64,000 nucleotides of DNA, from assembly GCA_032718475.1 (NCBI GenBank), contig JAUCBJ010000896.1, positions 1 through 64,000 on the forward strand, given 5' to 3'. The position numbers were made by a program, and so were the translations under genes. Of this stretch, positions 28,709 to 64,000 are shown piece after piece. The DNA is from Nemertoderma westbladi (lineage: Eukaryota; Animalia; Xenacoelomorpha). The notes under the pieces were generated by a model that saw nothing but the letters and a program-made list of their open reading frames with translations, ran no database searches and was not told the origin of the DNA. The stretch's first letter is position 1, and each line of letters starts with the position of its first letter.

Positions 28709-29642
28709 GTAAATGTTAGGGTTATGATTGATGGTGTTATGCGGGACTGATATACTGTATGTATATAGGTAGGAGGATTCCAAAGAGATACCGGTTACTA
28801 CCTAGGTCAGTACGGCAGGAGGTAGAGATAGATAGATTCAGTACAGCAGTACATTGTATTCGTCCGTCCTGCTTTACTTTATGCCGTCATACCATCAGTA
28901 TGGGACTGCAGGTTTATAGGAATATATAGATATATATGATCATCACTTATCTTTATTATATCTTCACGTTTACCTTGGGAACTAACAAATGGCGCTGCGA
29001 GTTGAAAGAAACCTATGGGCCTTGATACTGACTAACTGGACTACAGACCAGGGCCACGCATTGCTGCTTTGATTAGGCCTATTGATTTGATACTACATCA
29101 GCAGGACGGTAATTGCAACTACAGAACTACTGACCAAATTGCTACATCAGTACAGACCGGTACGGATCAACCGTACTGAGGTCACTGCTACAGCTTTTAC
29201 ATACGTACCGTCTCACCGTCGGTTGCTACCGCCACAACCAGACAACGATTACCGTTGCTTTCAAAACTTCTACCTACCATTCCAACCAGCCTAGACCGTA
29301 CATTCCTGCATTCGTTTTTTCTTACACCGGTATTACAAACCGGGCTGGCAGGAGGGAAATAGGCCAACCCTGCTACTCTAAGCCTACAGTCTGACAGTAA
29401 CTACAAACATTTCTACCAGTAAATTGCTATTGCAGTATTGTAACCCGTCTTTAAAAATATTCCAGTTATACTTGTTGACTGGAAGGAAAGAACCTGTATT
29501 CTTTGGCCATTCTGCCATTCGTTCATTTGTTCTACAATATGCAATACACCGGTACTCATTACTGATATACCTGTATACAGAGCAATACTTGTCAGACTAC
29601 TGGTAGGCCTAGATCTGCCAAATAAACATTTCTATACATACA

Positions 29643-32600
29643 ATGGCAGCGGCAGCCCCTGTATATACAAGGCTGTTTAAACCTTTCAAACAAACAGACA
29701 AATGGAGTGTCTATAAAACCATGATTTTGACAATTATAAATTCTGTTAGAATACCAGATAACAGTAACCCCGAAGAAGAAAAAAGGAAAATTTTAATTTC
29801 AAATTGTGGAACTGACCTCCTTGAAATAATAATAGATATTATTTACCCAGTAGACGTCAATGATGCTACATTTACAGTCATTATAGATGCTCTCAATGAT
29901 TATTTTCAATCATCCATAAACAAAGAGGCTGAAGTACGCAAATTTATTAGATTGCAGCAATTGCCTGCAGAATCTGTAACTGATTTTGTTAAACGTCTAC
30001 GCTCTGGGTCACGCTACTGTGAATTTGGAACAAGCCTGGACAGCAGGCTGAAAGAACAATTGCTTGCAGGCATAGCGAATGAATCTATAGCTACAGAATT
30101 GATGCGGTCAAAACCTACAGATTTTGCTACCGCGATTCAAGTTGCACGAAATTATGAAGAGGCATGCAATTTTGCAAAACGAGATATAGACGGGTTAACG
30201 GTACAAATGTCTAAACTAAACCCAAACTATGGGGCTTCTGAGCCGCATAATTATAAAAGTAGTAGTTTTTCACACATTCAATGCTTACGTTGTAATAAAA
30301 AAGGGCATAAATCTAACAGATGCAATGTGTCAGCAAGTATAACATGTCACTTTTGTGGAAATGCGGGCCATTTAGAAGTTGCGTGTTTGAAGAAAAGGGC
30401 CACATACACAAATTCAGGCAGTTTTAAACAGCAACGACCTGATAGACAGTTAAATACAAGTTCTAATAAAACTTGTAAATCATTTAGTAAAGCCCATGCA
30501 GTTGATGTTACAGATACAGGTGAAAGTACAGATGAAGAAGATATGTTTGAACAAATGAAAAGTTTTACTATAAAAGCAGAAATTGAAACCAATCAACTTA
30601 ATAAGGTAGATCCAATGACTACAATCATAACTGTAAATAACTCAAAGCCAATAATTTTTGAGCTTGACACAGGTGCACGTCATTCGGCCATTACATATTC
30701 AACATTAGAAAAGTATATACCAGAATTTAAGTTGGAAGAGAGTGATGCAACACTACGTGGTTACTGTGATGGTACAAAAAAGGTTCTAGGTCTTTGCCAT
30801 GTCACAGTACATATACCCAAATTGAACAAGACAGTTAATAATCTACCATTACTAGTGATCAATGGAAAAGTGAATACACCACTTTTTGGAAAACATTGGG
30901 TGGATACGTTTGGAGAAGGAGTGGATAAGCTAGTAGAAACTGCTCCGTTCATAGTGAAGTCCTTAGTACCCAGGAGTGCCTTAGAAACTATTCTTGAAAA
31001 TAATAGAAATGTATTTGATGGATTAGGATGTTACAATGGTACGCCAGCTAATGTTAGTTTGAAAGTGAATGCCCAGCCCAAGTTTTTAAAGTGTAGAACT
31101 GTCCCCCACGCATTTTGCGAGAAAGTGGAGTTGATATTACAGTCAGATATTGACAAGGGCAGCCTTCGTAAACCACTACCAAATGAAAACATTGAATGGG
31201 CTACCCCACTTGTTGTCGCAAAAAAACCTGGTTTAGATGACAAAATACGAGTCTGTGGGGATTATAAAAGTACATTAAATCCACATATCATAGATGATCC
31301 ATTTCCCTTACCTACATTTGATGAAATTGCAGCAAAACTGGAGGGTGGAGAAGAGTTTACAGTGATTGACCTAAGAGAAGCCTACCATCAGCTTCCTCTA
31401 GATCAGCATTCCCAACTACTTACGACTTTAAATACTCCACTTGGACTCTTAATACCAACTCGTGTTCCTTACGGGATAAAAACCGCAAGCACTAAGTGTT
31501 TAAAAGTTGTTGATGAGGTACTTCAAGAAGTCGACTGTAAAGAATCTGTTGCTGCTTACATGGATGAAATAATAATAACAGGTACAAATCGTCAGGATCA
31601 TTTAGAGAGACTTTGCAAAGTTCTCAAACAATTACAACAACGAAACATAACGTTACGGAGAGAAAAGTGTGCATTTTTACAGGATGAAGTCAAATTCTGC
31701 GGCCATGTCATTTCGAAACATGGAATTGCTCCTGATAAGGACAAAATTGAAGCAGTAGTGAAATTGCAGGAACCTTCAACTACCAAAGAGCTTCAGTCAG
31801 CTTTAGGATGTCAAAGTCGATTTTAACAATGTGATTTCTCAGAAGGATGGAACGACTTTGCATGGCTGCGATTACGCAATAAAGGGGGTCATGCTGTCAT
31901 GGGCGTTGTAACTTGAATTCGAGAAAACTATCTCGCTCACAAACGGATAAATGGTGTCTATAATTGAGGTCAATGAACTTGCTACCTAGGCCTATCTAAC
32001 GTGGGAGGTTATTATGATATCAAGCTTTAATTAGGTTATACCCAAGAGGTTTATAAATAACTCCAAAAACTCACCGGATTGATAATAATCGGCCCCCAAC
32101 CTAGGAGCTGTCTCCAGTAATAATTATTGTGGTTCAATAATATCGGCAATAGGTCTATAGCAATAAGCACCAACATTAACAACCAAACTGTAGGTCAACA
32201 TTACAGCATTAGAAATCTTGGAATATTGAAATATATCCGAAAATAAGGCGAGATAACAGTTTGTAGGGGTTTGGACCCGACAAACGCTGTGTTTCAGAAT
32301 TTCAAATGCCCCAATAATCCATCCTTGAGCTGTTCACGGTACAGACGGTACACGGTACCGCTATCACAAGTAAAGGTTGACTGACACGGTCAGACGGGCA
32401 ATTGAAAGTGATGACTGCAGACTGACACGGTCAGATGTACAAAGTATGTATAAAGTAATGAATACAGACTGACACGGTCAGACTGTACAAAGTATGTATA
32501 AAGTAATGAATACAGACTGACACAGTCAGACTGTAATTAATGATAATAAAAACACAGCGCCAATTTGCCTGTGGACCAACATCGGCAAACCGCCGTTGAC

Positions 32601-34751
32601 ATAGGATTCTTCAACTATTTGAGAAAGTTCATCCCGAATTATGCAGAAATGGCCCAACCCCTTTACAAAATGTTAGAGAAAGGAAATAAGTTTTTGTGGA
32701 CCAAAGTTGAAAGTAAGGCTTTTACCGACCTGAAACGGGCCATCACAAAATATACAATGCTTTGTTTTTTTGATACAAGAAAGGAAACACATCTAATTAC
32801 AGATGCTTCAGAACAGACAATATCTGCAATATTGTTACAGAAGAATACTGAAGGAAATCTATGCCCTATCGAATTCATGTCTGCTTCCCTATCACAATGT
32901 CAGAAGCGCTATTCACAACTTGATCGTGAGGCTCTTGCTATCATTAGTGGAATCCGGAAATTCCGAAATTATTTAATAGGTAGAAAATTCCATTTCATTA
33001 CCGACAACGAGCCTCTCCGACATATATTATCACCTTCAAAGGCATTGCCAGCTCTAGCAGTTTCTCGGCTTCAGCACTGGGCAATGGAGTTGTCATCCTA
33101 TGAATTCAGTATGTCATACATAAAGTCACAATTGAACCCATCCGATTGTTTTACTCGAATTTCGCAACCAGGTAACATTGTAGATGATGATATTGATATC
33201 AAATGCTTTGATATTCAAGAAGAGCAAAACATTCGAGAGATACCATTAAATCGAGATGGTTTAAAAGCAGCCACTGCTAATGATAACGTTTTAAAATTAA
33301 TACTACAGCATTTAAATTGTCCAAATTCCGGAATTGCAAAGGATAAAGCTCTTCATGATTACAAACCTTTAATGATTGAACTATCCAGTAATGATGGAAT
33401 TTTATGCAGAGGAACAGCAACAATAATCTCAATATCACTTCAGAAGAAAGTTCTCCAAGAGCTCCATGGACCACATACTTGCGCACGACGAATGAAAGAA
33501 ACTGCTCGTAATGTAGTTTGGTGGTTGGGAATCTCAAAAGATATAGAACTATATGTGAAAAGTTGTGAAAGTTGCCAGAGATGTGCGAAAGAGGTACATG
33601 TCACAACATGTCCAATGCCAGAACCAATAGAACCTTTTGAAAGAATACATCTTGACTTTGCAGAATACGAATCGACAATCTTCTTAGGAATAGAATGTGC
33701 CAAGACAAAATGGTCTCGAGTTATTGTTCCCAACAAAGCAACAGCAGCTATAGTCATCACTGAACTTCGGAAATTTTTCGCCGATTTCTCTATCCCTAAA
33801 ATTATCGTTGCAGATAATGGTCCCCAATTCCGAGCCGAAGAATTGGATGCTTTTTGCATTGCAAATGGCATTAACCGATGGCCCTCACCACCATATAAAC
33901 CGTCTTGTAATGGTGCAGCTGAGAGACTAGTGCAATCATTCAAATCGTCATTAAAGAAACAAGAAGATGATAATGAAAAATTATCTATGGCAGATCGTAT
34001 AAGTAGATTCATGTTGTTTGACCATAATGCAATAAAATCAAATGGGAAAACCCCCGCCGAGTTAGTGTTAGCGTACAAGCCAAAGACCCGATTAGATAGA
34101 CTGATCAACTTCCCAGCAAAGATCAAGGACCCAAAAAATAGTCCTTACGTTATTGGTGAAGCTGTATGGATACGTAATTATTCACGATTATCTGGGCACT
34201 ATGAGCGTTGGTTGCCTGGTAAAGTGGTTCAATACATCGGAAATAGAATTATCACGGTTGAAGTGTGCGGTGTCATTGTCCGTCGCCACATTGACCAAAT
34301 GAGACGCCGTTATAGTCCATTTGTAGGAACTTCACGCAGTATAGCGCCCCCCGAGATAACTAGTTCGCAACCCCTACCACCATATTACCATAGGTTAATA
34401 AATATTCCGGAAACAACTCCGGTCCATATTCAACGACGTTCTGAGAAGACACTTACCCAGATTCCACTGGAATGCACCTTCGAACCAACACAAGAACGGG
34501 TCGAGAGCTTTGTAACGCCCTGCAACAACCCACCATCACCTCATATTCAACGACGTTCTGAGAAGACACTTACCCAGATTCCACTGGAATGCACCTTCGA
34601 ACCAACACAAGAACGGGTCGAGAGCTTTGTAACGCCCTGCAACAACCCACCATCACCTACGGTACACAACCAGGGTGAACAACTCTCCAATGAACATCTA
34701 GCGAGATACCCACGACGGGCTCATAAGAAACCAAACTATTATGGATATTAA
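29643..34751 (+). CDS. Gypsy gag-pol polyprotein (1436 aa once the solo LTR and one TSD are removed)
   Basis: Two CCHC knuckles, protease FELDTGA, RT (IRVCGDYK, YMDE), RNase H (ITDAS, YSQLDREAL), integrase (HLDF, VADNGPQF, NGAAERLV); SALG/FFNY rejoins in frame. Confidence 0.92.
31809..32601. mobile_element. Solo LTR (793 bp) of an unrelated family inserted in Gypsy pol
   Basis: TGTCAA...TTGACA termini; TSD TAGGA at 31804-31808 and 32602-32606. Confidence 0.85.
34425..34658 (+). repeat. 117-bp in-frame tandem duplication in the Gypsy integrase tail
   Basis: HIQRRSEKTL...CNNPPSP occurs twice. Confidence 0.95.
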
Positions 34752-35114
34752 TATGGGAATAGGAGACTATAATAAGCCTGAACATAATACTAAAAGATTC
34801 ATATTGTGTGTTTTATATGAATTATTTTGTGGGGGGAAATTGTTAGGGTTATGATTGATGGTGTTATGCGGGACTGATATACTGTATGTACATAGGTAGG
34901 AGGATTCCAAGGAGATACCTGTTACTACCTAGGTCAGTACGGCAGGAGGTAGAGATAGATAGATTCAGTACAGCAGTACATTGTATTCGTCCGTCCTGCT
35001 TTACTTTATGCCGTCATACCATCAGTATGGGACTGCAGGTTTATAGGAATATATAGATATATATGATCATCACTTATCTTTATTATATCTTCACGTTTAC
35101 CTTGGGAACTAACA

Positions 35115-38036: not shown

Positions 38037-41000
38037 TTATTTACTAATATTTGTTGGAGATTTGTAGTCTCCAGACTCGTTACGAGTCTCTTCAAGAAGT
38101 ACGAGACGTTGAGTCGGTCTGTCAACTGTACGACCGTCAATTGTCCGTACCGTCACAGTTCTTGTCACTCCATCCATAGATGGATGTGTGGCTAAAATTA
38201 CACCTGTTATCCAGAAGCGTCTTTTTAGATTCACTTCCGCTAACAGCACGTGATCTCCCGGCTTTAATGCCCGGGTGTTATTGTACCAGTTTGTTCTGGC
38301 AGAAATAGAGGGCAAATAATGGTTTTGCCATATCTCCCAGAATTTGTTAGCTAGTAGTTGCGTGATTTTCCACGCTTTTCTACCGTAGCTATCGCCTTCC
38401 ATTGGAAAAGAAATAGGCGTCAAAGTAGTCGGTGCCTGCATTAGCAGGTGTGCAGGTGTTAAAGCAAACTGGGATTGTTTGTCATCGGGTACTAATACTA
38501 TTGGTCTAGTATTTAGTATTGCCTCGATTTCAACAAACAATGTGGTCAATTGGTCGTCTGTCAATATGTGGTTTACTGGAATGACCTTTGCCATTGCCGT
38601 TTTGATAGATCTAATCAATCTCTCCCAGACTCCGCCTCTCCATGGACTATCTGGAGGATTAAACTTCCAAATAATCTTGTAAGGACGTAGTTCGTTTGAG
38701 ATTTGATCGTGATCTAATTTCTTAAAGGCTCTAGCTATTTCATTTCGAGCACCAACAAAGTTTGTCCCTTGGTCTGAGTACAAGCATTTCACTAGTCCGC
38801 GTCTAGCGATAAATCGCCGCAATGCTAGTATAAACGCGTTGGTGGAAAGATCCATCACACGTTCGATATGAACTGCCCTACTGGACATACATGTGAAAAT
38901 CAGTCCCCAGCGTTTTACTAGTATACGTCCACGTTTCGTATGTATGGGACCAAAGCAATCAATTCCAGTCTCTGTAAAAGGTGGTCTGAATGCTTGAAGT
39001 CGTGCTTGTGGAAGTTCACTCATTTCTTGGGTACCTATTCTAGAATGTACCTTTTTACAAATAATACACGTACGTGTCACTGAACTTAACGCTTTACTGG
39101 GTCTAATCAATACAAATCTTGTACGTAAGTAGGAAAGACAGTGGTGTCTTCCAGCGTGTTTCAGATGTAAATGTGCGTCCAGTATCATTGCACGTTGTAA
39201 TTCGTGATGCTGCGGTATTATTATTGGGTACCTAAAGTTCGTGTTAAAGTCAATGTTTTGAAGCCGAGATTTATGACAAATTAAGCCATTATAAATTATC
39301 GGACTCCAACTCAATATTGGTGACGACTTGATTGGTTGACCTTGATTTATAGATGTGAATTCGCGTGCGAAGTATCGCAGTTGGTAATGGCGAATTAATT
39401 TAATTTCACACCTGTCAATCTCAGTCAATGTAAGTCGACGTGTAAAGTCGCATTTGCCTTTAACGTATTGTACAAAACGTACAATCCACGCTAATTTTCG
39501 GCAAGCATTTGTCCAAGAATCTGTTAGGTTTACAATACGGTCGACGTAAGTATTTGTGACGTCATCAGGTAAGTCAATGGAGAATTTGGAAGGTTTTGAT
39601 TTACTAGAAGGTCCCACGGGTCCGCCGGTAAGTATTCCCTTGTTGACTGTTGATCCGTCCGGGTCTACAAGTAATTCGTCCTTCCTTGTTTTCTTACCTT
39701 GATTGTCAGTACTTTGTAAGTCGATCGTTAATGGTGGTTTGAACTCTATGGGGTCACTGGGTTTCGGTAAACTTAATTTTCTGCCGATATTAATCCCAGG
39801 GCTCACCATAGGTTGCAAGTTTGGTATGTCTCTTGAGCGCAAAGTAACACCTGTATTTACATTAGCGTAGGTACTACCCACATCTGTAATACATGAGGTT
39901 TCACTGTGCTCATGGTTGCTCAAGTGTGTCAAATTTGGTAGTTTGTCAATACAAGGCTGCTCCAATAGGGAAACTGCGGCTTTACTATTTGTCAATATGT
40001 TACTAGTGTCTGGTAGAACATTTTGTGACATGTCTGGTAAAATGTTTCGCGGAACATCCGGCGAAATATCTAGTGACGTGTCTGGCAAAACGTCTGGTTG
40101 ACCGTCTAGTAACGCGTCTGGTGATACGTCTGGTAACGTGTCTGGTTGACCGTCTGGCGATATGTCTGGTGTAGAAAGGCTCGCAAGTCTTCCGTTCTTG
40201 ACTTTTGAAGTTATCGCCTTCCATTTCGCCTTCGGTTTTTTCTTAAGTTTAGCCGCCGTCTTTTTCTTTGCTTTCCCTTTCTTTGGTTTTTTAATTTCGG
40301 CGTCTTTAGGGATAGTGTTAGACTTGTTGTCGTATAGTGGCGGCCAATGTAGTGTTGATCTTTGCAAGAATTGTGGTCCGTGCTGCCAAAATTCTTTGTT
40401 CTCCGATTTACAGAATTCCTCAGGCATCATTCCTCGCGACGCAATATCGGCTGGGTTTTGTGGTCCGGGACAATGTCGCCAATCTTCCTTTATTGAACGG
40501 TCTAGAATTTCTGCGCGACGGTTAGCTACGAATGTCTTGAATTCGAGTGTGTCGTTGTTTATGTAAAATAAAACCAACGTCGCGTCAGTCCAATAAAATA
40601 TCTGTAAACTTGACTGTAGTTCCGTCTGTATAAGGTTCACGATTGTGGTTGACAGGGTTGCTGCTTGTAGCTCAGCGCGTGGTGTCGTCATATACTTAGT
40701 AGGCATAGTCTTAGCCTTAGAGGTAATGAGCGAAACATCAAACTCTTCTGAGTCTACTTGTCTGCGCAAGTACGCTGCCACTCCAAAGCCGTTGTCACTG
40801 GCGTCGGAAAAACAATGTAATTCCAAGTTGTCGGGAAATGTCGTTTGTAATAAGTACACTCTGGGTATGGAATAATCCTCTAGTGAAGATAATTCTGCCT
40901 CCCAGGTTTTCCATAAATCCACTTGTTCTGATGAGATCGGCTCGTCCCATGTCAGTCCATCCTTCCAAATACTGCGCATATAGATTCTGGCTTGCAGTAT

Positions 41001-42539
41001 TATTGGACTGATGAATCCTAATGGATCGAATAATCGACTCAATTTTGACAAGCAGGATCTCTTTGTCAGAGTGTTTTCTTGAGTGTCCAGTCTCACCTTC
41101 ACTCGAAAGTTGTCCGTGTTTGGGTCCCAAAAGAGCCCCAACACCTTGGTCGTCGGTAGTGGTTCAAACTCTAGGTCTATTTCACCACCTCCACGCTCAG
41201 TCGTTCCGAATGAGTCTACCAATTCGGCACTGTTTGAGGCGAATTTGGTGAGGTTAAAACCTCCGCCCGCTAAGCAGTCCCGTAATTGATGTGCTACTGT
41301 TATAGCACGTTCTACTGTGTCACAACTCTGTAAACCATCGTCCACGTAAAAGTCACGTTCTACGATCTTGATTATCTCTGGGTCATATATATGTTTCTGA
41401 TCCCTAGCGGCTTGCTTTAGGGCGTACATCGTACAGTTTGGGCTGTCCCTGGCACCGAAAACGCGAACTTGCATTTGGTAAGTCGCTGGTGGTAGACCTA
41501 AGTCTCCTTCCGTGTACCAGAGGAACCTCAAACTGTCTCTGTCTCGCTCTAACGCTCTCACTTGGTGAAACATCGCTTCAACGTCACAAGTAAAGGCTAC
41601 CTGGCGTTGACGGAAGCGCATAATCACCCCCATAAGATAATTATTCATGCTCGGTCCATCCATCAACTCGCTATTGAGGGACATTCCCTCAAACAGAGCC
41701 GCACAGTCATTGACTACACGTACTTTGTCTGGTTTGTCGGGATGTCTCACGTAGTGATGTGGTAAGTAGTATGTCTGGTCTGTCACAATCTCTGGGTTAG
41801 TCATTCTGATGGCGTATCCCTTTGTTAAATACGTCTCCATCTGAGTATTATACTGCAGATGGGCTTTCTCGTCCTTTAATAGATGTTGTCGTATTGAGTG
41901 TAAACGTCTTAAGGCTAGCGGATAGTTATTTATGAGTTTAGGACGTTGGTTACGCCATAGCATCCCTACCTCATAATGTCCGTCTTTCGTCTGGCGGATA
42001 GTATCTTCCATGATCTTCAAAGATTGTTTCTCTTGTTCCGACATACATGGATCGTAGCTACCAGGTTCAGCTGTATCTTGTTCTAACCACCTGATAGTCT
42101 TCTCCGTTAATTCTTTGTCCAATGCAGCTTGTTCCACTTGATGATTTCTTAATGCGTTATCATCGATATCGACGGGCATTGTTGAGGTTATTGGTGTAGG
42201 TAGACTCGCAAGCCTTCCGGCGTTATCATCTGTCGTCGATGGAATCTCTGGCTGACTCGTCTTCTCCCCAAGTTCTAAACTCACCTGGTGGATTAGCTGC
42301 TCCTTGTGACTTATCATACTAGCTACACACGTCGTATCATGTTTTGTCGAATGTAGTGTAGTATAGTCTATGTCGTGTGAAAAGGAATGAGTCGAAGTTG
42401 TAGTTAATAAACTACATGTACTTTGTATATCGTCTTCCTCGTCACTTATATCCAGTGTGCGCACAGGCGCTCGAGTATACCACCCTATCGGCGTTCTACA
42501 GGCGTATGCGTTTCCAGCTACGACTGCCGATGGTCTGGT
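38037..42539 (-). CDS. BEL/Pao pol: RT, RNase H, integrase
   Basis: YYLPHH..KVRVVNDC, DVEAMFHQV, RDFYVDD, LHCFSDAS, TPRAELQAA, NPADIASRG, TGIDCFGP, YSDQGTNF, GGVWERLI, LTPAHLL; in frame with the protease ORF across one TAA (42540-42542). Confidence 0.95.
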   Translation of the reverse strand, partial: TRPSAVVAGNAYACRTPIGWYTRAPVRTLDISDEEDDIQSTCSLLTTTSTHSFSHDIDYTTLHSTKHDTTCVASMISHKEQLIHQVSLELGEKTSQPEIPSTTDDNAGRLASLPTPITSTMPVDIDDNALRNHQVEQAALDKELTEKTIRWLEQDTAEPGSYDPCMSEQEKQSLKIMEDTIRQTKDGHYEVGMLWRNQRPKLINNYPLALRRLHSIRQHLLKDEKAHLQYNTQMETYLTKGYAIRMTNPEIVTDQTYYLPHHYVRHPDKPDKVRVVNDCAALFEGMSLNSELMDGPSMNNYLMGVIMRFRQRQVAFTCDVEAMFHQVRALERDRDSLRFLWYTEGDLGLPPATYQMQVRVFGARDSPNCTMYALKQAARDQKHIYDPEIIKIVERDFYVDDGLQSCDTVERAITVAHQLRDCLAGGGFNLTKFASNSAELVDSFGTTERGGGEIDLEFEPLPTTKVLGLFWDPNTDNFRVKVRLDTQENTLTKRSCLSKLSRLFDPLGFISPIILQARIYMRSIWKDGLTWDEPISSEQVDLWKTWEAELSSLEDYSIPRVYLLQTTFPDNLELHCFSDASDNGFGVAAYLRRQVDSEEFDVSLITSKAKTMPTKYMTTPRAELQAATLSTTIVNLIQTELQSSLQIFYWTDATLVLFYINNDTLEFKTFVANRRAEILDRSIKEDWRHCPGPQNPADIASRGMMPEEFCKSENKEFWQHGPQFLQRSTLHWPPLYDNKSNTIPKDAEIKKPKKGKAKKKTAAKLKKKPKAKWKAITSKVKNGRLASLSTPDISPDGQPDTLPDVSPDALLDGQPDVLPDTSLDISPDVPRNILPDMSQNVLPDTSNILTNSKAAVSLLEQPCIDKLPNLTHLSNHEHSETSCITDVGSTYANVNTGVTLRSRDIPNLQPMVSPGINIGRKLSLPKPSDPIEFKPPLTIDLQSTDNQGKKTRKDELLVDPDGSTVNKGILTGGPVGPSSKSKPSKFSIDLPDDVTNTYVDRIVNLTDSWTNACRKLAWIVRFVQYVKGKCDFTRRLTLTEIDRCEIKLIRHYQLRYFAREFTSINQGQPIKSSPILSWSPIIYNGLICHKSRLQNIDFNTNFRYPIIIPQHHELQRAMILDAHLHLKHAGRHHCLSYLRTRFVLIRPSKALSSVTRTCIICKKVHSRIGTQEMSELPQARLQAFRPPFTETGIDCFGPIHTKRGRILVKRWGLIFTCMSSRAVHIERVMDLSTNAFILALRRFIARRGLVKCLYSDQGTNFVGARNEIARAFKKLDHDQISNELRPYKIIWKFNPPDSPWRGGVWERLIRSIKTAMAKVIPVNHILTDDQLTTLFVEIEAILNTRPIVLVPDDKQSQFALTPAHLLMQAPTTLTPISFPMEGDSYGRKAWKITQLLANKFWEIWQNHYLPSISARTNWYNNTRALKPGDHVLLAEVNLKRRFWITGVILATHPSMDGVTRTVTVRTIDGRTVDRPTQRLVLLEETRNESGDYKSPTNISK

Positions 42540-46949: not shown

Positions 46950-46960
46950 CATATTCCTAC
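46950..46960 (-). promoter_or_regulatory. Non-tRNA primer-binding-site candidate GTAGGAATATG, complementary to LTR 47993-48003
   Basis: Abuts the LTR end; no TGG; perfect 11-bp inverted match inside the LTR. Confidence 0.65.
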
Positions 46961-48881
46961 TATTGTGAAGAGACAGTAACAATACCTGCAATATCATACT
47001 ACAAAGTTTGTGAATCAAATCATAATCCGACCTTCTCACCAAAACAGTAAACTCCAAGTAAGCGAATATATTGCAGTATCGGTCTCTTATAACAGGTGAG
47101 GCAGAAAACAGTCTACGGACAGACAAACTTCGATAAAACAAAATCCCGCGCAGCGAATCCTAAAATCAGGCTGACTCACTGACGGACTAAGGGGCTCGTA
47201 TACTTTGCCGCGGTGTGATTTATATGGTTGGGCGAAAAGGACGCTAGCTAGGTGCAGAGATTTGGAGATATCTAACTAGCGGGCAAAGTGCAGTACGGAC
47301 AAAAGTTAATTTTATATATTTTGAGGTGTAAATAATTTCTAACGCGCGTGTGTTAATTCTGAACAGTCAAGATCAGTTTTGCTCCTTCATATATATAATT
47401 ACTGGGTACGGTGTGCATTTTACGAATATTCTAATTTTGTAACTTGTAGGTCCAATACTCACGAATGATAAGGCTCCTTCCCCTCTTGCGTATTTCCAGG
47501 ACTCAAATTCAGGCATAAGGTTAATACTACGCCCAGAATTCGGCAATTTTAATTTACCAGGTCCCTAATACTAAGAAGAAATGTGTTAGTTTACTACAGT
47601 AGGCGTACTGTTACTAATAGCTAGCCTGGCGTCCTATCTAGAATTTTGGTTACCTAGGTGGGCTTGGTAACTTCCTATCAGGATGTCGGCGGGGACACGG
47701 TAGATGTTAGTATATCCCTAATAGCCTCAATTTATTTTGCGCCTAGTCGTAAACTGCCCTACCGCCTGAACGGTACAATCCTAATTCAGGTGAAACACAG
47801 TAACTCTCCTGGCCTACAAGTTCTAATGCAATGGACACCGTTGTACTACAAATAGTCACAGACGCACCTGTACTTAGCAAGAGTTAGGCGTACAGTTTGC
47901 TGCACCCTACCAATGTGTATGCTTTGTACCGGTGTGCCTACGTCCTATCTGCGTACTAGTATCTCTGCCTGAGCTCTCCTCTCCTCTCCCCCGTAGGAAT
48001 ATGAAGGTCTACTGCGGTTTTTTCCTGAATCAAAACAGTACAGTCCCTAGATGTAATTTTAGGCGTACAGCGTGTCACTACCTCTACCTTCGATCTTTGG
48101 TCTTATACTTAGGTAGCAAGGCATCGAACGCTGTCTAACCTTTCAGGCGATGGGTGAATAACTGAGAGTGATATTGCGGGTTGTCTCCTGTCTACATTCC
48201 TTGGATGTTCCCGTTCATTGCTGCGGCCCGATGTTTAGCCAGCCATCCTGTCCCTCAGTTGAGTTCACCGTGGTGAAGCATAGTAAAACAGATAGAAAAG
48301 GGCAGATGTGACAAGTATTTCTAACTTTTATTACAAAATCAAACAATAACTATTATACAATAAACAGAATAGATTAAATCGCAAGACTGAGATGTAATAG
48401 TGATGTAGTGAATATTGAAGATTGAGATTGATAACTAATGAACGAAACTGCACCTTTTATACCAAATTTGTGCCGTAATCAATCGAGAAAATTCTCGATT
48501 GTTCTATGAGTTCTAACAGAATTTTAAAGATAGCCATTGGTCCAGCAAATATATAACTTGTACGACATTGGTTACAATCTAATAACTACAGTCTCATTGG
48601 TTAATCTTACTTCGAGCAAATGCAATTAATTTGTAGCGGTCAATTTAAATGAGTTGAAATTCTGCACAAAAAACAATTCGCACCTACTAGGATTCGAACT
48701 CAATACACACTACATATAATTTCCAACGCTCTACCGACTGAGCTACTGAACCACTTGACTAATCATCGTACAAATAGATATAGCAAATACAAATGAGGAC
48801 TTAATGTAATCTTTAGCAAAGTTAATTCGAATAAAATAAAAATTTTGAAAATCCACGGCGTTTAGAGAATATAATTCTATA
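46961..48881 (-). repeat. Family 1 LTR in the 5' position (upstream of gag)
   Basis: Near-identical to 24536-26456. Confidence 0.92.
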
Positions 48882-51785: not shown

Positions 51786-51798
51786 TAATAGTAATAGG

Positions 51799-52408: not shown

Positions 52409-54162
52409 ATTTGGAGTGTTGTAATTTAGTAACCTTTAATTTTATTATTCTTTTTTCACTGTTCAGTGACGCCCCTGTCTGTAACTGGTAGGCAGTCTGT
52501 TGGTAACTGGAAGCCAGGCGGCAGCAGTCTTTCTGTGAAAGTTAATCATAAGAATGTAATTTAAAGTGATAACTAACACACAGTGGTATCTATACTAAGG
52601 TTAGTTACTAATAATTGTTCTATAAAGGTCTTAATACTTGCCGCCTTTGATTGCCTTTATGAGACTTTATTGATTGCATAAGCTCTCTGCTCTCAGCTCT
52701 TTTCCTTTCGGCTGTAAATCCAAAAGGCGTCTGCGGCATAGAAGGGAAGTTTTACCTTATAAAGTGTGGGTTGGATGTTTCCTTAAACCCCGGTTTATAC
52801 ACTCAAAAAAATTTATTGTTCTCCAAACTGCCAAAAACATTATCAGTACGACAACATAATCTATTTAAAAAATATAAGAATGTGATGGGATCCACGAAGG
52901 ATCCCGATTTATCCGTTTGTCAATTTACGCGTCCCCGCCGTGTGTGAAAGGTAAAAGAGTTTGCGTTGTTCGTTGTATATAATTTCCGGGTATAGATAGG
53001 TATAGATAATGTGTTATAGTATAGAGTATCTAAATGTTGGTATATGGAAGGCGGGAAACGGTAATTGAAGTCCCGGTACTTCCCTAGCTAAACTATCCCA
53101 ACTAACACCAATAACATACTGAGATAACTGAACTGAATGATTGCTGATACCTAATAATATATTGCACGGTTTGGCCTTGCTACAGTAAATAGCCGATGCT
53201 TCCCCCCTGATTGGCTAATATCCTTGTTGGCGCCCTTTGGAGTGTTCCCGTTCACTCCAGCTATTCTCCCTCTGTTAGGGGTTTGGCCCCTGACCCTCAT
53301 TGTGCGTCTCTCCTTCCCACTTTGTTGGGGTGACACGAGTTATTGATTATCCAATCTCGTGGCCCCCAATATTGCTTAATGATTGACTTTATGGGTTCGT
53401 GTTAGCGGAATTGAATAAGCTAACACTCCCCCCCATGCTATCTTCCCGGTGAGAAGATAGCATCCACCTTTAAGTGCGCTACAATTCCGCTGGACCCCGA
53501 TCTAGTATCGGGTGTGGGGTGGAACTATTTTCTCTCAGAGCCGGCTTTCCAGGCCGCTCCCTATGGGTATGATATCGCTACCCGGGTTCGCCTGGCATCC
53601 CATGTCGGGCTGATTGTGCGCTCCTCTCACACGACTTTTGTTTCCCCAACACTTTCGCCACTTTGACTCCACTCCGTTCTCACCCTGACTCTCTTCTACT
53701 CCTCTTCTCTCTCACTCTAACTCTCGGACTTCCCTGTCCCTCACTCAGCCTCTTATCCTCCCCCCCCACACTTGAATTGCATCCGCGCTCTCTCCGCACA
53801 CCGCACTATCACCTTTACTCGACCCCTCTTTGACCTCCTTATCCTTTCTGACGAGTCCCACCCCCCTCCTGTGCTGTCGCACTCAAGAAGTGTGAAATCG
53901 TCTGGTGTCTCGTCCATAGTGCCATAGTCAGTTAGCCCCCCAGTCCCAGTAGCTAATTGAGAAAGGTTGTATGACTATAGTACTTACTTCGAATGTATAT
54001 TTCATGACTAAACTACTGATTACTACGTACGTACATACAAATTGCACTTATTTAATTATTTGCATCATTTTGAATTTGTACTTAATAGTTCGTACTTCCC
54101 ACGTGGCGCCTTCCAGGCGTACCACGTCCAAGTCTCAGTTTCTCTCTCCCAGCCCTGGGAAC

Positions 54163-55592
54163 CTATTTGTCCCTCCTGAGATAGTTCCCTCTGGCGTCCT
54201 CCTCCCTGGGTCGTTTCTTGGTCACTACCGCTCCTCTGGGATCCGCTTTCTGCCTTCGGACTTTCGCCGCCACCTCCCTACTGATCCCGGTCATTGGCTC
54301 CTTGGGCGCTGGTGTTATCAGTGCCCGATATCGCTTCGCCGGTGGCCCCTCCGAGTGGCCCTGTTGTCTCCCCCTGGTGGCGTCCCATAAGATCATCTTC
54401 ATTGCCTGCGGCACGTGCTCCGCCAAGAAATCCCTAAACTCCCCTCGGTTCTGTGGTGTCCACCTGTCCAAATACCTTTGTGTATTTATTACCCCGGCAT
54501 ACGACGCCGCCGTCGCTACCTCTTGATAGGTAAACGGTAGCCTCCTCTTTATGATCTCCAAGTGAGCCTCCTGGTTGATTAGGAAGAAACCCCAATTAAA
54601 CTCCTGGGCCTTCATGCGTTGCCGCGTCATGGCCCCGACGTCGGCCCATTCTTCGAAGATCCTGAACTTCTCCTCATCGTCCATCCAGTCGCACTGGTGT
54701 CCGTAGTGTCCCCAAAAGTTACACTTCGGACATCGGTTATGCAACCGTGGACACGCCCAATCCTGTGGCTCGACTCGCGGCAGTAGAGACAACTAGTCCC
54801 TTTCTGGAATCGGTACAGGCAGCTCATTTCCTGGTGGGTCTGTCTCCCACAGTAGTCACAGCCGAGCACCAATGTCTCCCGCCCCACGTCGTCTTTCGTC
54901 CCAAGCGATCTCCGCGGTCTGTGGAGTCGCTGATAGGCAAACTTCTGGACGTTAGCGTCCCTGTCTACGTCGATTTCCTCACCCCTCCCGGGCATTGTCT
55001 CCCCGAATACTACTCGTGGTGCCGTCCCCGGTTGATCGCCCAACCTGATAGTGCTCCCCGCGAAATCCATCGCCGGTCCCTCGTGCACCCAGGCCCGCTT
55101 GCCGGGTTTGTCCCAGAAGGCTCTTGCCCCACTGGCCGTCACCACCCTCCCGCCAACCCAGTCCGTGTCCGAGTGGCCTATCCTCTCGATGGGTGGCATC
55201 TCTCTGAACTCGTCGTCGTCCTCGTCCTCCTCTCGCAGTGGTTCCAACCCCGGTATCCTGGTGGACCCACTATGTCCCTTCCCGCCTTGGTTCTTGCCCG
55301 TAACTCTCCATTCCTCAAGCTCCCCTAGCTTCCTTTGCGGTTGATCGCCCTCGGCGCCTGCTGGTATGGGCATCGCTTGCAATCCCGACGTCGACTGTTT
55401 CGGTGATCCCACCGTCCACCCCAGTTCTTTCCCTAGAGACTCCCCCGAACTCCCTGACGAAGTCCAACGAAGTACGTCTAAGGCCATTTGTTCCTCGAAG
55501 CCGTAGCTCTGCGCCCTAGCTTCCTCCTCCCTCTCTTCTGCTTCTCTCCTCTCCCACAAGTTTGCCTGCCATCTCGAACTCTGCCCGATCGC
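54163..55592 (-). pseudogene. Family 2 accessory triple-CCHC ORF (frameshift near 54765)
   Basis: CDYCGRQTHQEMSC, CLYCRESSH/DWAC, CPKCNFWGHYGHQC, then FRIFEEWADVG..FNWGFFLINQ and a basic tail. Confidence 0.8.
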
Positions 55593-56641
55593 TCACCCGT
55601 AGGTGGTGCCTTGCCAAGGTGTGACGGGATCTACGGATCCCGGTTTATCCGTTGGGTTTTCTATCTACGCGTCCCCGCCGTGTGTGAAAGGTAAAAGAGT
55701 TCTGATGTTCGGTTATATGTATAAGGTATAATATAGTTGATATATAGGCTTTAGTATAGTATGGCACAGTTACCGGTAGATAAGTATGATGGCAGTAGCG
55801 GACGGTGATAGAAGTCACCGTTCCACCCTACTGAACTAACTGAGTAAACTGAGTGAATGATTGCTGTACAGGTAATATATACTGCACGGGTTTGGCCGTT
55901 ACAGTACTTAGTCGATGCTGTCCCCCCATTGGCTAATATCCCTGTTGGCACCCTTTGCCCCCCTCTGAAGTGCTTCCCTTCGCCCTTGCTGTTCTCTCTT
56001 GGTTAGGGGTTTGGCCCCTGACCCTTATTGTGTGTGTCTCCTTTGGGGCCTGTTGTCCCCGTTTACTGGGGTGACACGAGGTTGATTGGTAATCAACCTC
56101 GTGCTCCCAATATTGCTTAATGGCTCACTCTATGGGTTTGTGTTAGCGGAATTGGATAAGCTAACACTCCCCCCCATGCTATCTTCCCGGTGAGAAGATA
56201 GCATCCAACTCAAGTGCGCTACAATTCCGCTGGATCCCGATCTATTATCGGGTGTGGGGTGGGTCTATTTTTTCGGAGTCGGCTTTCCAGGCCGCTCCCT
56301 ATGGGTATGATGTCACTACCCTCTGGCGTCTCGTGTCGGGCCGATCGTGCGCTTCTCTCATACAATTTTTGTTTCCCCAACACTCTCACCACTCTAACTC
56401 CGCTCTCTGACTCAACTCGCTCTTACCCTCTCCCCACACCTGAATCGCACTCCTCTCTCTCGCCAACAGTTCCTCTCACTATCTCCTCTCTAATCTCTGC
56501 CACTCTCTAAGGCCCTGACCTCTAATGCTACCCCTGTGCTATCATACTATCTACCTACTACTCACTTGCTAACTATCTAACTCTCTTACTAACTCTAACT
56601 ATCTCTCTAAGCCTACTAACTTTAACTCTAACTCTTTTACT

Positions 56642-57729: not shown

Positions 57730-59214
57730 TCACGCTGGCAGAATGAATAGAAAGTGAAAGAACAGGCAGAACAGTAGTCCTATTCCTTTCCATCCTGCCT
57801 TCCTTCTCGACTTCCCCCTTGTCGGTATGCCTCCAAACCGGACCGGCATCTCTTCCGGACACTCCTCTAGACACTCCTCCAGACACTCCTCTGGAGTGTT
57901 GTCCTCCGGACACCTCGCCGTCCGCTCCGCTTCATCTCCATACCGATGCTTGCTGGGAAACCTACTCTCCTCTGCCCACTTTCTTACTGTCACCTCCCTA
58001 TCTGGCTCTACTATCTCCTCCGGCTTCTTATCTTCGTCCTCTGTGTCTGCGGTGCCTGGTAACATGCATCCTGATGTCTCTGTCACACTGCATGGTATCT
58101 TAGTTTTAACTGGGCCGCTAAGCATCCACCCGAACGGCGTGAGGATCGCCGTCGGATCCCGCTGCCTGTCTTCGCCGAAGACCGTCTTCGTTCTCTCGTG
58201 GGCCGTCGGGCAGTCCATCCCTACTATAATGGACACCTTCCTAACGTCCACCTTTGGTATTGAGAAATCGATACCATCCAGGAATCTATATTGTTCGACC
58301 TCAATGTTGGTTGGTCGCCTGGCGTTGATGTTTATCGATTCTATGACGTGGATGGGGTCGATCGTCGCCCCATAGTCGTATCCCGGTGCAATCGCTGCTA
58401 TCCTGCACCGCCCCACCCTCGTCTCCAGGACCTCATCTTTACTCGAGACGGTAGTCACCACCATTCTATTCGGCCTTGTCTTTAGCCCTATCTCTTCGGC
58501 CACCCAGTTCTCCACCAGCGTGAAGGCTGCTCCACTGTCGACCAGCATTAATGTCGTTACTGATCGACCGCCCTCTCCTGATATCTTTACTGGTACTACC
58601 CCGAGTAGTACTTTTCTCTTCTTCTTCTCTTCTGTCGTGCTTGTGGCCATTGCCTGGCCTCCAGTCTCGGACTCTCTAACTGCTGTTTCTCTACACTCTC
58701 CGGATCTGTGTCCTTCTACCACACATCGATGACATAGTCCGTTCGCGTCTGTGTAGGCTATACGATCTTGTTTGGGCAACGCTTGCCAGTGCTTACAACT
58801 CCTGGTCTTATGTGTTCCATCCCGATGTAATTGACATTCGAATCCTGGATCATAGCGTTCCCTGTATAGTCCCTCACGTATCGCGCCTAGGTTTATATGT
58901 ACCGATTTAGTGTTTTGGTTGTCTGTATTCGGCCTACTGGGTACATTGGGATTATGTTTATTTATGGTGTTATTTTCTTTCTGTCCCCGCCATGGTGTGG
59001 CCCTGCTACCAGCTAACTGTGGACTAGCAGTCCCCTGTGTGGCCGCATGTGGTAGTGATTGTCCGCATGACCTGTTCTCATCCAAGGGGTTCGATGTCCT
59101 TGCTCCTATTGGGGTATATTGTCGATATTGTGATGGGGGAATGTCACCCTGTCCCCCCCCCCCACCGGTATGTTTGGTACTGGGGTTGATGTTAATATAT
59201 TGGGGCCCATACAT
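57730..59214 (-). CDS. BEL-type Gag zinc knuckles and aspartic protease
   Basis: CQLH..H..SC, LCHRC..GHRSGEC, LLGVVPV..MLVDSGAAFTLV, IIVGMD, TPFGWML. Confidence 0.85.
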   Translation of the reverse strand: MYGPQYININPSTKHTGGGGGQGDIPPSQYRQYTPIGARTSNPLDENRSCGQSLPHAATQGTASPQLAGSRATPWRGQKENNTINKHNPNVPSRPNTDNQNTKSVHINLGAIREGLYRERYDPGFECQLHRDGTHKTRSCKHWQALPKQDRIAYTDANGLCHRCVVEGHRSGECRETAVRESETGGQAMATSTTEEKKKRKVLLGVVPVKISGEGGRSVTTLMLVDSGAAFTLVENWVAEEIGLKTRPNRMVVTTVSSKDEVLETRVGRCRIAAIAPGYDYGATIDPIHVIESININARRPTNIEVEQYRFLDGIDFSIPKVDVRKVSIIVGMDCPTAHERTKTVFGEDRQRDPTAILTPFGWMLSGPVKTKIPCSVTETSGCMLPGTADTEDEDKKPEEIVEPDREVTVRKWAEESRFPSKHRYGDEAERTARCPEDNTPEECLEECLEECPEEMPVRFGGIPTRGKSRRKAGWKGIGLLFCLFFHFLFILPA

Positions 59215-60106
59215 CTATCTGCAATAATTACCCCCTCCCCTGGATATATGTTGTGTCCCTGGAAATTATAGTCATGCTGCTGTACCGGTACCGATATAGG
59301 CCTATTCACTTCTTGCCTACCTACCGGTATGTACTCCGCGACTTCCGGGTTTAATCCCGTCGTCCGCGCTACCCTATCGCCTACTCTATCTCTCCCAGCA
59401 TGGCCTATAATAGTATGTGCAGTAAGGCCTACAGTATGTCCTGCAGTCTGCATGTGCCCTTCCGAATCGAAGTTTATTCTTCTCGAATCTCCCCGTGACT
59501 ACCGTACTCTCGATCGGCAGCTATATCACGTCGGGAAGTTTCTCTTCGATCCCCACTCCTGTTCTCTTCTTCGTATCGGTACATCCTGTACCCCTCTCCT
59601 GGCCTGCGGTGCGTTTCTCCGGGGCGACGGCAATCTCCCGAAGTTCGACCCCACTGACTCTCCGTCTCAATCTCTACTACTGACGGCTCGCTATCCGTCC
59701 TTGCTCTCCTGTTGCTCCTAGCAACGATTCTTCTACTCTCTCCACTTCTTCTATCTTCGACCTCTCTATTAAACTCTACTAATCTTCTCTCTTCTGACTG
59801 GGCTCGACGTTCCGTCGCCCGCCCTCTCGCGACGTCAACCTGTCTCTCTCTGCTCGATCGCACGCCGCTGGGGATACTCGCAATCCCCCTATTATTCTCC
59901 GTCGCCGGGTGTTGCGGTTTACCTAATTCGGCCCGCGCATTATCCGCCGACGCCTGTGGGACACTCCCTGCCCCCCTCTCTCGCTACTAATGTCTCGCGG
60001 TGGGGTGCCCGTAGTCCCCCCCCACCCGCCACTTCTAACTTCATTATCTCTCACTACACTTCTGCGTACCTCTTGTGGGGCATTCTCTGCCCCCCCTCTC
60101 TCGCCA

Positions 60107-61663
60107 CTAATCTTCCGTGGTGGGGCGCCCGTAGCCCCCCCCCCACCCGCCACATCTAACTTCAATATCTCTTACTTCGTCTCTACACTCCTCTCTAGTC
60201 GACACACTATCTCTACTACGGCTGGGTCTATTCACCCCCGCCTCTCTCTCTACTACTGCGAGGCCTACCAGGCCAACCTCGGGTTGGCTCAACCCTGCTA
60301 CCTCCTGCCTACCAACTACGTGGCCTACCAGGCCGCCGTCGGGTTGGCGCAACCCCGCCACTTCCTGCCTACTAACTACGTGGCCTACCAGGCCGCCGTC
60401 TGCCGGGCTATACACGTCTGACGCGTTCATATTAATAGCACCATTCCCAATATTATTTGTTAAATCAATTAAATTATTAGAATTTGAAACGGGATTATTA
60501 TTTAAATTATTTAAGTTAGAATTATTATTATTTTCAAAATTTAAATTGCTATTCGAATTATTTGAATTATTTTGATTATTCTGAATATTTGAATTAATAT
60601 TATTATTTGAATTTAAACTTAAATTACTACTACCGGGTAAAATATTTCCTGTAATAAAGGGATTAGGGTTATTTACTACAGTACTATTAATACCAATATT
60701 TCCTAACGCACTACTACTACCCCCCTCACCCGTACGGTTACTGTACGTACTGTACGTGTACCGCACGCTCTGTTCTCTTGCCTCACGCTCTTCGCGTTCA
60801 CTCTCTTGCTCCTTCCTTCCCCTCAGTCGCCACTCTAATTCTTCCATTTTTAATTTATATGCCATGCGCTCACTCTCTCGCACCCGTCTTTCTTTTGCGG
60901 AGGATGTAGCAGACTTATCGGTTGCGACGGACTCCCGCCGCCCCTCCGTCCTACTAACTTTCCCCCACTCTCCGGGGTTCTCGCTGACCAACGAGACCGA
61001 ATCCTCGGAGCTAACCTCGGATTCGCCCTCGTGCGGTCCCGCCCAACCCACTAACTTAACTTCCCTGGCATCGACTAAGTATGGCCCTATGTACACTACA
61101 CCAGGCCCCATACCCCTACGTTCCCATAGCCCAAACAGTTCGAAGGCAACCCCTCTCGCTCTCTCCTCGGCCAGTTCTCCCTGCCCAGAACGCACTAGGT
61201 AATCAAAGTATCTGTTCGACTCACCTAGTCGTCTCCTCAACTTCACCTGGTCTATCTCAGCCCCTCCTCTAGCTTCCTTCAGTTGCTCCCGGGTCGCGGC
61301 GTAGGCTCGTCGGAGCCGTACGACCCCGACGCCCTCGTCGTCGACATCTCCTCTCTCCCTCCGGGTTCGGCGTCGTACCGTCGGCCCCACCGTTGCCGTT
61401 CCGGTGGGCCGTCCGTCGCCCTCGGCCTCTCGCTGGCCGGCGACATCGGCATATCGACCGCCGCCCTGTGTCGACTCGTCTCTCTCCTCTCCAAACTCGT
61501 CCTCTCGCTGTAGACGACCCCCCGCATCTTGGTTCGCCGGGTTACTCGTTATCGACGTAGCATCGACCGGCGTCGTGGGTCCGTATTGTCTCGCCGTGGC
61601 CTCGCGGATCGTTAGATCGTCGTCCGGGGTCCGCGGCGGTGTCGTTCCTCTCTCTCGACTCAT
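60107..61663 (-). CDS. Gag N-terminal low-complexity region (R/E-rich, Asn-rich tract, 20-aa repeats)
   Basis: ATG about 170 nt after the 5' LTR; 518-aa ORF; frameshifted toward the downstream gag ORFs. Confidence 0.65.
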   Translation of the reverse strand: MSRERGTTPPRTPDDDLTIREATARQYGPTTPVDATSITSNPANQDAGGRLQREDEFGEERDESTQGGGRYADVAGQREAEGDGRPTGTATVGPTVRRRTRRERGDVDDEGVGVVRLRRAYAATREQLKEARGGAEIDQVKLRRRLGESNRYFDYLVRSGQGELAEERARGVAFELFGLWERRGMGPGVVYIGPYLVDAREVKLVGWAGPHEGESEVSSEDSVSLVSENPGEWGKVSRTEGRRESVATDKSATSSAKERRVRESERMAYKLKMEELEWRLRGRKEQESEREEREAREQSVRYTYSTYSNRTGEGGSSSALGNIGINSTVVNNPNPFITGNILPGSSNLSLNSNNNINSNIQNNQNNSNNSNSNLNFENNNNSNLNNLNNNPVSNSNNLIDLTNNIGNGAINMNASDVYSPADGGLVGHVVSRQEVAGLRQPDGGLVGHVVGRQEVAGLSQPEVGLVGLAVVEREAGVNRPSRSRDSVSTREECRDEVRDIEVRCGGWGGGYGRPTTED

Positions 61664-61823
61664 CTTCGTCTTTAGTAGCCGTCAGTCACAGTCTGTCAGG
61701 CCAGTTGGTTGGATCTAGTTCTATCACTGTCAGACTGTTAGGGCAGCTGCTAGGATTCTATCTCTGTCAGGGCAGCTGGGCGGATCTAATTCTATCACTG
61801 TCAGGGCAGCTGGGCGGATCTGA

Positions 61824-61832
61824 TTCTATCAC
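61824..61832 (-). promoter_or_regulatory. Non-tRNA primer-binding-site candidate GTGATAGAA, complementary to LTR 62018-62026; reiterated at 61790, 61756 and 61719
   Basis: Abuts the LTR end; no TGG; inverted match inside the LTR with extended pairing. Confidence 0.65.
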
Positions 61833-62796
61833 TGTGACGGGATCTACGGATCCCGGTTTATCCGTTGGGTTTTCTATCTACGCGTCCCTGCCGTGTGTGA
61901 AAGGTAAAAGAGTTCTGATGTTCGGTTATATGTATAAGGTATAATATAGTTGATATATAGGCTTTAGTATAGTATGGCACAGTTACCGGTAGATAAGTAT
62001 GATGGCGGTAGCGGACGGTGATAGAAGTCACCGTTCCACCCTACTGAACTAACTGAGTAAGCTGAGTGAATGATTGCTGTACAGGTAATATATACTGCAC
62101 GGGTTTGGCCGTTACAGTACTTAGTCGATGCTGTCCCCCCATTGGCTAATATCCCTGTTGGCACCCTTTGCCCCCCTCTGAAGTGCTTCCCTTCGCCCTT
62201 GCTGTTCTCTCTTGGTTAGGGGTTTGGCCCCTGACCCTTATTGTGTGTGTCTCCTTTGGGGCCTGTTGTCCCCGTTTACTGGGGTGACACGAGGTTGATT
62301 GGTAATCAACCTCGTGCTCCCAATATTGCTTAATGGCTCACTCTATGGGTTTGTGTTAGCGGAATTGGATAAGCTAACACAAGGCGCAAACGTGATGAGT
62401 GATGAGTTTAGGTGGTTTAAGTTCAGTTCGATGGCCTATCTCTCTCTGAATTTCTGAGTTATTAAATTGTACCCTAAATTTGCAATTTTCAGCCCTATTC
62501 TTCTATTTATTTTAATTTACTTTTAACCCTACTGTCCTACTACTTGCTACTGCCTATGGATTATTCTATCTCCTAATCCACATTCTGGCCTACTCTGTGG
62601 GCCTGTGCAGTACAACAGTATGCATCGCGTGGCCACATGATTTATCCAGCTGTACTCACATGCCCCCCTCTCGCTACTAATTACTGACTGCTAACTAATA
62701 TCTATATCATATATACCCTTCTACCTCTATCTCTATCTTTTACTAACTAGTACTACATACTTTCTTGCTAACTCTTACTCTCTCTAACTAACTAAC

Positions 62797-63594: not shown

Positions 63595-63996
63595 CTAAGG
63601 TGCCCCTTCTAATAGACAGCATTTCCCTACAGCTCTCCTGTAGGTTTTTCTGTCCTTCGCACCTATCTTGCCACCTATCCACACTTCTACAGATCGGACT
63701 CTTCCGTCCTCATCGTAGTAAGTGCCTACAACTCTCGCCAACCGCCACTGGTTGTTGATGATAGTATCATCCGTGACGATTACGAGATCTCCCTCTTTTA
63801 GCTCCCTATTCGACTTCCTCCACTTGCTTATTTTGTGAAGCGTGGGTAGGTATTCCTCAACCCACCTCCTCCAATACTCTGCGCTTATCGCTTTAGCGAC
63901 TTTCCAACTCTGGCGGGAGTATATGTTGTCTGGATCTACACCCCGCATATTGATGGTCGCTGGCCTTTCCATTAGAAAATGGCTTGGCGTCAGCAC
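63595..63996 (-). CDS. BEL/Pao integrase C-terminal region (partial pol)
   Basis: LTPSHFL, YWRRWVEEYLPTL, LKEGDLVIV, WRLARV, DGRVRSVEV. Confidence 0.92.
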   Translation of the reverse strand: MLTPSHFLMERPATINMRGVDPDNIYSRQSWKVAKAISAEYWRRWVEEYLPTLHKISKWRKSNRELKEGDLVIVTDDTIINNQWRLARVVGTYYDEDGRVRSVEVWIGGKIGAKDRKTYRRAVGKCCLLEGAP

Positions 63997-64000
63997 ATCT

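Follow-up and report, generated by a model that had tools for sequence, protein, structure and literature searches.

Two BEL/Pao elements, N and B, within the window (the whole 64,000-nt stretch of Nemertoderma westbladi DNA analysed here) and distant relatives possess a primer binding site (PBS) that does not begin with TGG, is the complement of a stretch of that element's long terminal repeat (LTR), and co-varies with this stretch across families. Judged from these sequence features, N and B likely start reverse transcription with their own RNA, Tf1-like self-priming being the likely mechanism. Here, we will distinguish between four elements (N, H, B, and D, labels coined in this analysis), of which N is nested in the host element H.

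H is on the minus strand, and the window contains only its 3' LTR (52881..53425; 545 bp, ends TGT...ACA), an additional Cys/His-rich ORF located behind the integrase (54163..55592; two frames, with a break near 54760), and the end of pol (63595..63999), which encodes DUF5641, the domain found after the BEL/Pao integrase (Pfam E 3.3e-24). The polypurine tract occupies 53426..53434 on the minus strand, its complement adjoining the 3' LTR on the forward strand, and AAGAA at 52876..52880 is the expected 5-bp target site duplication (TSD), in parallel with the 5-bp TSDs present in N and in B; its second copy would be past the window edge. The 5' LTR of H and the adjoining PBS are located beyond position 64000, outside the window (by the proportions of B, the LTR would lie roughly 5-9 kb further on), and the first-pass annotation had predicted this PBS from a 9-mer in the 3' LTR. 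Sequence check and ungapped alignment bore out the 9-mer at 53061-53069 with ACG and GTC on either side, as well as the AAGAA next to the LTR and the limits given for the LTR: GTAATTGAA occurs once in the window and aligns without gaps with GTGATAGAA of both N LTRs (55805 and 62018), with mismatches at positions 3 and 6 of 9, and the LTRs of H and N are identical at 386 of 516 aligned bases (75%). From the alignment to the N segment, the predicted self-primer core of H is 53061..53069 (minus strand), with AC as the RNA end. These bases are probably the 3' end of the H self-primer, and the predicted PBS would begin with GTAATTGAA, or a G-U variant, 0-5 bases after the 5' LTR; that this PBS reads GTAATTGAA or a wobble variant is a prediction of which we are reasonably confident, even when we take into account that the register could be wrong or that the single H copy could have decayed. 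Exact H LTR patterns gave no matches in the metagenome contig and viral contig collections.

The premise of the prediction, that the PBS is complementary to the element's own LTR, held in two of two BEL/Pao elements of the window with a readable PBS and in 16 of 16 relatives with a defined LTR end (15 perfect over at least 10 nt, one with a mismatch). The proposed test, reading the bases beside the partner LTR, is weaker than it was written. When G-U pairs are allowed, 8 of the 9 bases in a PBS of the nested type can pair with the segment of H, so that only position 6 (T, not A) separates the predicted H PBS from that of N. Self-priming could hold while the PBS of H is not GTAATTGAA, the H LTR having drifted or the family tolerating a mismatch, with a PBS that is N-like or one position off. 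H is older than N, since N sits inside it, and because H offers a single LTR copy and a broken 3' ORF, it may have mutated after insertion. On the other side, the H and N LTRs, at 75% identity, show many family-level differences, so most of these predate the insertion, and the last 134 codons of H pol are open. We regard such drift or tolerance as unlikely, and the relatives described below bear on it as well.

N spans 55620-62379 on the minus strand between two copies of its TSD, CAAGG (55615-55619 and 62380-62384). The insertion point is the centre of a short palindrome (55608-55619 and 62380-62387) just upstream of the H 3' ORF. The 3' LTR (55620..56166) and 5' LTR (61833..62379) have 3 differences, and the coding part (57730..61681) encodes an aspartic protease and has a gag-like ORF. 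N is taken to be non-autonomous, since ORFs for RT, RNase H, and integrase were not seen in it. On the minus strand, the 5' LTR is followed directly by GTGATAGAA, with no spacer and no TGG; this PBS (61832-61824) opens a 34-nt leader unit at 61799..61832. The primer core complementary to the PBS is at 62018..62026 (minus strand), and is supported by shuffles and by pair probability: the anchored complement measures 9 nt (62026-62018), when the LTR was shuffled 1000 times, matches of at least 9 nt with a spacer of up to 5 nt arose in 6 cases, and the RNA fold gives the core helix a pair probability of 0.93. Beyond the PBS, the leader unit finds its partner in LTR sequence upstream of the core, the pairing continuing via three more short helices to ~29 bp in all, with bulges, and the energy of this extended duplex was reached by 0 of 200 shuffles. 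The fold of the whole region is unremarkable in both N (z-score -1.14) and H (z-score -0.27). As N was the starting point of the first-pass annotation, it provides no independent test of the premise.

The N leader contains further PBS-like copies at 61790, 61756, and 61719, none of which is a predicted partner of the core (probability 0.01 or less). In front of three of the four PBS-like units in the leader (61719-61832) stands a TGACA or TAACA-like motif that imitates the LTR end, and the units could reflect repeated duplication in priming or strand transfer. An intron splitting the N core was sought by split-match search and none was found; there is no GT(A/G)AG donor site in the H LTR.

In both N and H, the core also lies within a local hairpin (predicted at 53051..53088 on the minus strand in H, -10.0 kcal/mol; the N equivalent has -17.8), and the 3' arm of this hairpin is mimicked by the leader, which makes it a possible switch. 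A 7-bp hairpin shortly upstream of the LTR end (52887..52905, minus strand, in H) is common to both elements, with a different loop and one changed pair. A motif scan placed TATA-like boxes upstream of the 3' end of the core, at a distance of 76 nt in N, 100 nt in H, and 468 nt in B, and put the transcript starts 46-430 nt upstream; in H, the box (from 53161) and an initiator-like site at 53129 (53129..53161, minus strand) give a predicted transcript start ~68 nt upstream of the primer 3' end. The primer core is thus probably internal to the transcript.

A potential hairpin switch, and a core that is not located at the predicted transcript start, would also suit a regulatory reading, in which the pairing of LTR and PBS is real but serves packaging, dimerisation, or translation control, and a tRNA fragment or small host RNA is the displacing primer; priming in these BEL/Pao elements has, moreover, been deduced from the letters of the DNA. 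Set against this, the paired stretch begins precisely at the place required for the start of priming, 0-5 nt from the LTR end; ARAGORN detected no tRNA gene, and Rfam gave no match in 46000-64000. We consider a purely regulatory pairing improbable, and prefer self-priming.

B, which was not used by the first-pass annotation, is an independent test of the premise. Its 5' LTR is at 46961..48881 (minus strand; 1921 bp) and the other copy is at 24536-26456; the unusual LTR ends, TAT...ATA, are fixed by the TSD AGAGA at 24531-24535 and 52011-52015. The pol ORF (38037..42539, minus strand; 1500 aa) encodes an RT region, Peptidase_A17, an integrase zinc finger, and DUF5641, the Pfam matches of B being Peptidase_A17 (E 1.4e-42), DUF5641, Integrase_H2C2, and DUF1759, and PF05380 was present in all of the best 120 matches to B pol. 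Since N and H are without RT in the window, it is by their layout and a weak similarity of proteins that they are taken to be kin of B. Two more ORFs, of 586 and 242 aa, are found between B pol and the 3' ORF (35006-37495, minus strand), and neither has a Pfam match.

The PBS of B, GTAGGAATATG (46950..46960, minus strand), again has no spacer and no TGG. An 11-nt complement, the primer core, is present in the LTR at 47993..48003 (minus strand); it is unlike the sequence of N, and a match of this quality was reached by 8 of 1000 shuffles. The core helix is present in the minimum-energy fold over 1030 nt, and its probability is 0.79-0.93 for RNA starts no more than 70 nt away from the core; with a start at the TATA-predicted site ~430 nt upstream, it drops to 0.00. 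The energy of the extended duplex is not unusual (reached by 21 of 100 shuffles). AATAAA is found both 339 nt upstream and 257 nt downstream of the core, and with the upstream copy R would end too early; we have no full explanation for this double placement. An intron splitting the B core was rejected (best match 9 nt, 42 of 60 shuffles).

The B region (24536-52010) is a tandem with a shared middle LTR: an LTR, the internal part, which carries a Gypsy insertion (TSD GTAAA), the middle LTR, a partial second copy that breaks at 51785, and an LTR end of 212 bp. The entire tandem has inserted into a 24/31-bp minisatellite and is flanked by the TSD AGAGA. The nested Gypsy element (28711..35114, plus strand; 277-bp LTRs) serves as a control: it has a TGG PBS at 28990, and no complement to this PBS was found in its own LTR (4 nt, 982 of 1000 shuffles).

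An ordinary tRNA could still prime H at a TGG site, with the segment at 53061-53069 being a relic or a chance match, given that the H PBS is outside the window and that the International Committee on Taxonomy of Viruses (ICTV) profile gives an 18-nt site for tRNA-Arg or tRNA-Gly (PMC8742986). We think this very improbable; N, with an LTR 75% identical to that of H, is without TGG, as are B and all 16 relatives, whose first 8 nt after the 5' LTR were examined. Self-priming remains the preferred reading of the H segment.

All three copies of the B U3 contain a stretch resembling a tRNA (26245-26340 on the minus strand, 48670, and 51799), in which motifs similar to an A box and a B box precede a run of T. 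It was unmatched by ARAGORN and Rfam and, by eye, does not match the B PBS. Primers in the form of an element-encoded tRNA are found in Cer7 of C. elegans; here, ARAGORN detected 0 genes and Rfam 0 matches (46000-64000), and such a primer was rejected.

Distant relatives were collected by aligning the RT/RNase H of B with 30 of the 120 listed homologues, which gave 91 loci, mostly at 36-45% identity. A long direct repeat was present in 51, and the 40 without one were dropped. The 51 loci were judged by eye: 16 have a defined LTR end, 20 have an LTR start only, and 15 were dropped, either because the repeat had no recognisable LTR ends or because it belonged to another element. The latter was the case with L088, where positions 1530-6249 are a separate element on the opposite strand with 331-bp LTRs and a PBS resembling the half-tRNA-Met type of Copia elements. 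Twelve contigs from bacterial genome bins (L080-L091) carry an animal-type BEL/Pao pol, several with both LTRs, and are probably host DNA within those bins; the viral contig collection contained no BEL/Pao relative. In RT/RNase H, the 16 relatives with a defined LTR end share only 38-45% identity with B; they should be counted as about ten families because kin pairs are not independent.

A contiguous PBS complement in these LTRs is short (6-9 nt, 28-612 of 1000 shuffles), and each such complement is directly behind a pyrimidine tract and AG; a split match was therefore preferred. When one GT-AG intron was allowed, a match of 10-15 nt across the junction was obtained in 12 of 13 loci with delimited LTRs, with a score that was reached by 0-13 of 300 shuffles in each of the 12 tested. 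L039, L041, and L077, which are outside the shuffle-tested set, have split matches of 12, 15, and 15 nt, and L081 fits with one core mismatch, so that 15 of the 16 relatives possess a PBS complement of 10-15 nt across a GT-AG intron in the LTR. Donor choice was unrestricted in the search of the delimited LTRs, complementarity alone being scored, and yet the best donor was GT(A/G)AG in 10 of 12 loci, although such sites make up only 1-9 of the 26-120 GT per LTR; the exceptions are L050, with GTACGT, and L086, in which three donors tie, GTGAGT among them. The predicted introns are 67 to 451 nt in length, which varies even among close kin. For the 20 start-only loci, the LTR end and junction were searched jointly with GT(A/G)AG donors only; 14 give at least 10 nt and 6 do not, compared with 4.5% of 800 shuffles. 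Splicing of the LTR in the relatives is a prediction from these matches.

When each PBS is compared with each LTR, high scores fall along the diagonal of the table and among kin, and three non-kin cells reach 10-12. Co-variation extends to the junction: the last three bases of exon 1 are CAC in L086 and TAA in L087, and the PBS has the matching GTG and TTA. As in N, B, and the segment of H, the primer ends in AC in 14 of the 16 relatives. The relatives have 12 different 9-nt cores between them, and one fixed host primer cannot fit these plus N and B, which is a further point against a purely regulatory pairing. The first 9 nt of the core are perfect in 15 of the 16 relatives and in both window elements, which tells against drift or tolerance in H, while the single mismatch among the relatives is a point in its favour.

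Folding of the spliced RNA predicts the helix at a probability of 0.67 or more in 9 of 13 relatives and does not predict it in the other 4; in unspliced RNA, it is at 0.21 or less in all 13. In 12 of 13, A(A/T)TAAA is found 8-104 nt downstream of the acceptor, so R would reach past the cut; near the LTR end of N and H there is only GATAAA. A TATA-like word is within 75 nt of the donor in only 3 of 13, which lends no support to a Tf1-like 5'-terminal primer. In a tree of 84 sequences (midpoint root, without an outgroup), B falls, with weak support (0.79), on a long branch in the midst of intron-bearing loci, and the tree does not polarise the change between intron-bearing and intron-less LTRs.

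By analogy with Tf1, the following mechanism may be proposed. The 5' part of the genomic RNA would fold back and pair with the PBS through a core of 9-15 bp and one or two short helices, and would be cut just after the core (nearly always after AC), probably by the RNase H of the RT, which would leave a 3'-OH. The RT would extend this end into U5 and the remainder of R, followed by transfer to the 3' end. Plus-strand synthesis would then copy the primer, such that the PBS is rewritten from the LTR segment, and this would explain why the two change together. In N, B, and H the core is contiguous, whereas in most relatives it would arise only after the LTR intron has been spliced; such an intron would be heritable only when the 3' copy of R remains unspliced, and RNA spliced at both ends, once copied, would yield an intron-less LTR as in N, H, and B. 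The broadest version of this proposal is that a wide animal BEL/Pao lineage swapped tRNA priming for a two-exon LTR self-primer assembled by the spliceosome, and that the window elements are an intron-less branch with a ready-made, hairpin-masked primer, cut well inside the transcript (not at base 11), and a PBS rewritten in each cycle; we would put the chances of this full scenario at even. If true, a spliceosome-built primer would make reverse transcription depend on splicing and leave priming to the 5' copy of R alone, in its spliced form.

The extra Cys/His-rich ORF behind the integrase is present at 49669-50925 and 27244-28794 in B, at 54163-55592 in H, and at ~400-690 in a fourth related element, D. 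It has no Pfam family, and no homologue was found among 3599 candidates of 229-732 aa or in the 91 loci. The window opens with the 3' end of D (1 to ~1332 onward, plus strand), with the Cys/His-rich frame, a B-like purine tract, and an LTR apparently from near 1332. Positions 4300-17400 are an array of repeat units of 450-1400 bp each; it includes a higher-order duplication that is exact over 4217 bp, and a single copy (16156-16322) is inverted.

In classification, B has the pol domain order of BEL/Pao, H shows DUF5641 only and N the protease only within the window; the layout of LTRs, polypurine tract, and TSD is complete in N and B, and one LTR and the polypurine tract of H are in the window. 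The likeness to Belpaoviridae comprises the order of Gag DUF1759, protease, RT, Peptidase_A17, integrase, and DUF5641, along with the LTRs, polypurine tract, and 5-bp TSD. The ICTV profile of that family describes priming by host tRNA-Arg or tRNA-Gly and LTRs of 0.2-1.2 kb, and calls BEL/Pao replication poorly understood (PMC8742986). The elements described here differ in several respects: N, B, and the 16 relatives lack TGG and thus the 18-nt tRNA site, the B LTR is 1.9 kb with TAT...ATA instead of TG...CA ends, and H and B have the extra 3' ORF. Full-text literature searches brought up no report of self-priming or split primers in BEL/Pao, and PMC3118150, PMC6238403, and PMC8556966 gave no match for PBS, tRNA, intron, or self-priming; PMC6934838, PMC8220671, PMC3601003, and PMC554778 were also consulted. 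An earlier mention may exist in Repbase, GyDB, subscription journals, or supplements.

Self-priming has so far been reported for Ty3/gypsy elements (Tf1/sushi) and predicted for some Ty1/copia elements, while BEL/Pao has been described as tRNA-primed. For the TAR lineage of plant Ty1/copia (Houba, Osr-1) and the Tcn1 chromoviruses, it was predicted from an LTR complement of at least 10 nt starting 0-5 nt after the LTR (PMC6317226); B and 15 relatives reach at least 10 nt, and N has 9 exact. Those elements belong to other superfamilies and hosts, and no split primer is mentioned in the passages of PMC6317226 considered here. The closest parallel is with Tf1/Tf2 and Tj1 of fission yeasts (Ty3/gypsy), for which PMC7175516 and PMC4600332 describe the lack of a tRNA site and a PBS that matches, as complement, ~11 nt within the 5' LTR of the same element; in Tf1, the RNA's first 11 bases pair with the PBS, and RNase H cuts between bases 11 and 12 (PMC7175516). 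N and B likewise have no tRNA site and a PBS complementary to their own LTR, as do the relatives after predicted splicing. They are not members of Tf1/sushi, the pol being Pao-type and not that of a Ty3/gypsy chromovirus, and the cleavage that was demonstrated for Tf1 is inferred here. If the interpretation is correct, PBSs and LTR ends can be located by this rule where tRNA-based tools score the PBS as absent, and self-priming occurs in all three LTR superfamilies, in many BEL/Pao elements in dependence on splicing within the LTR.
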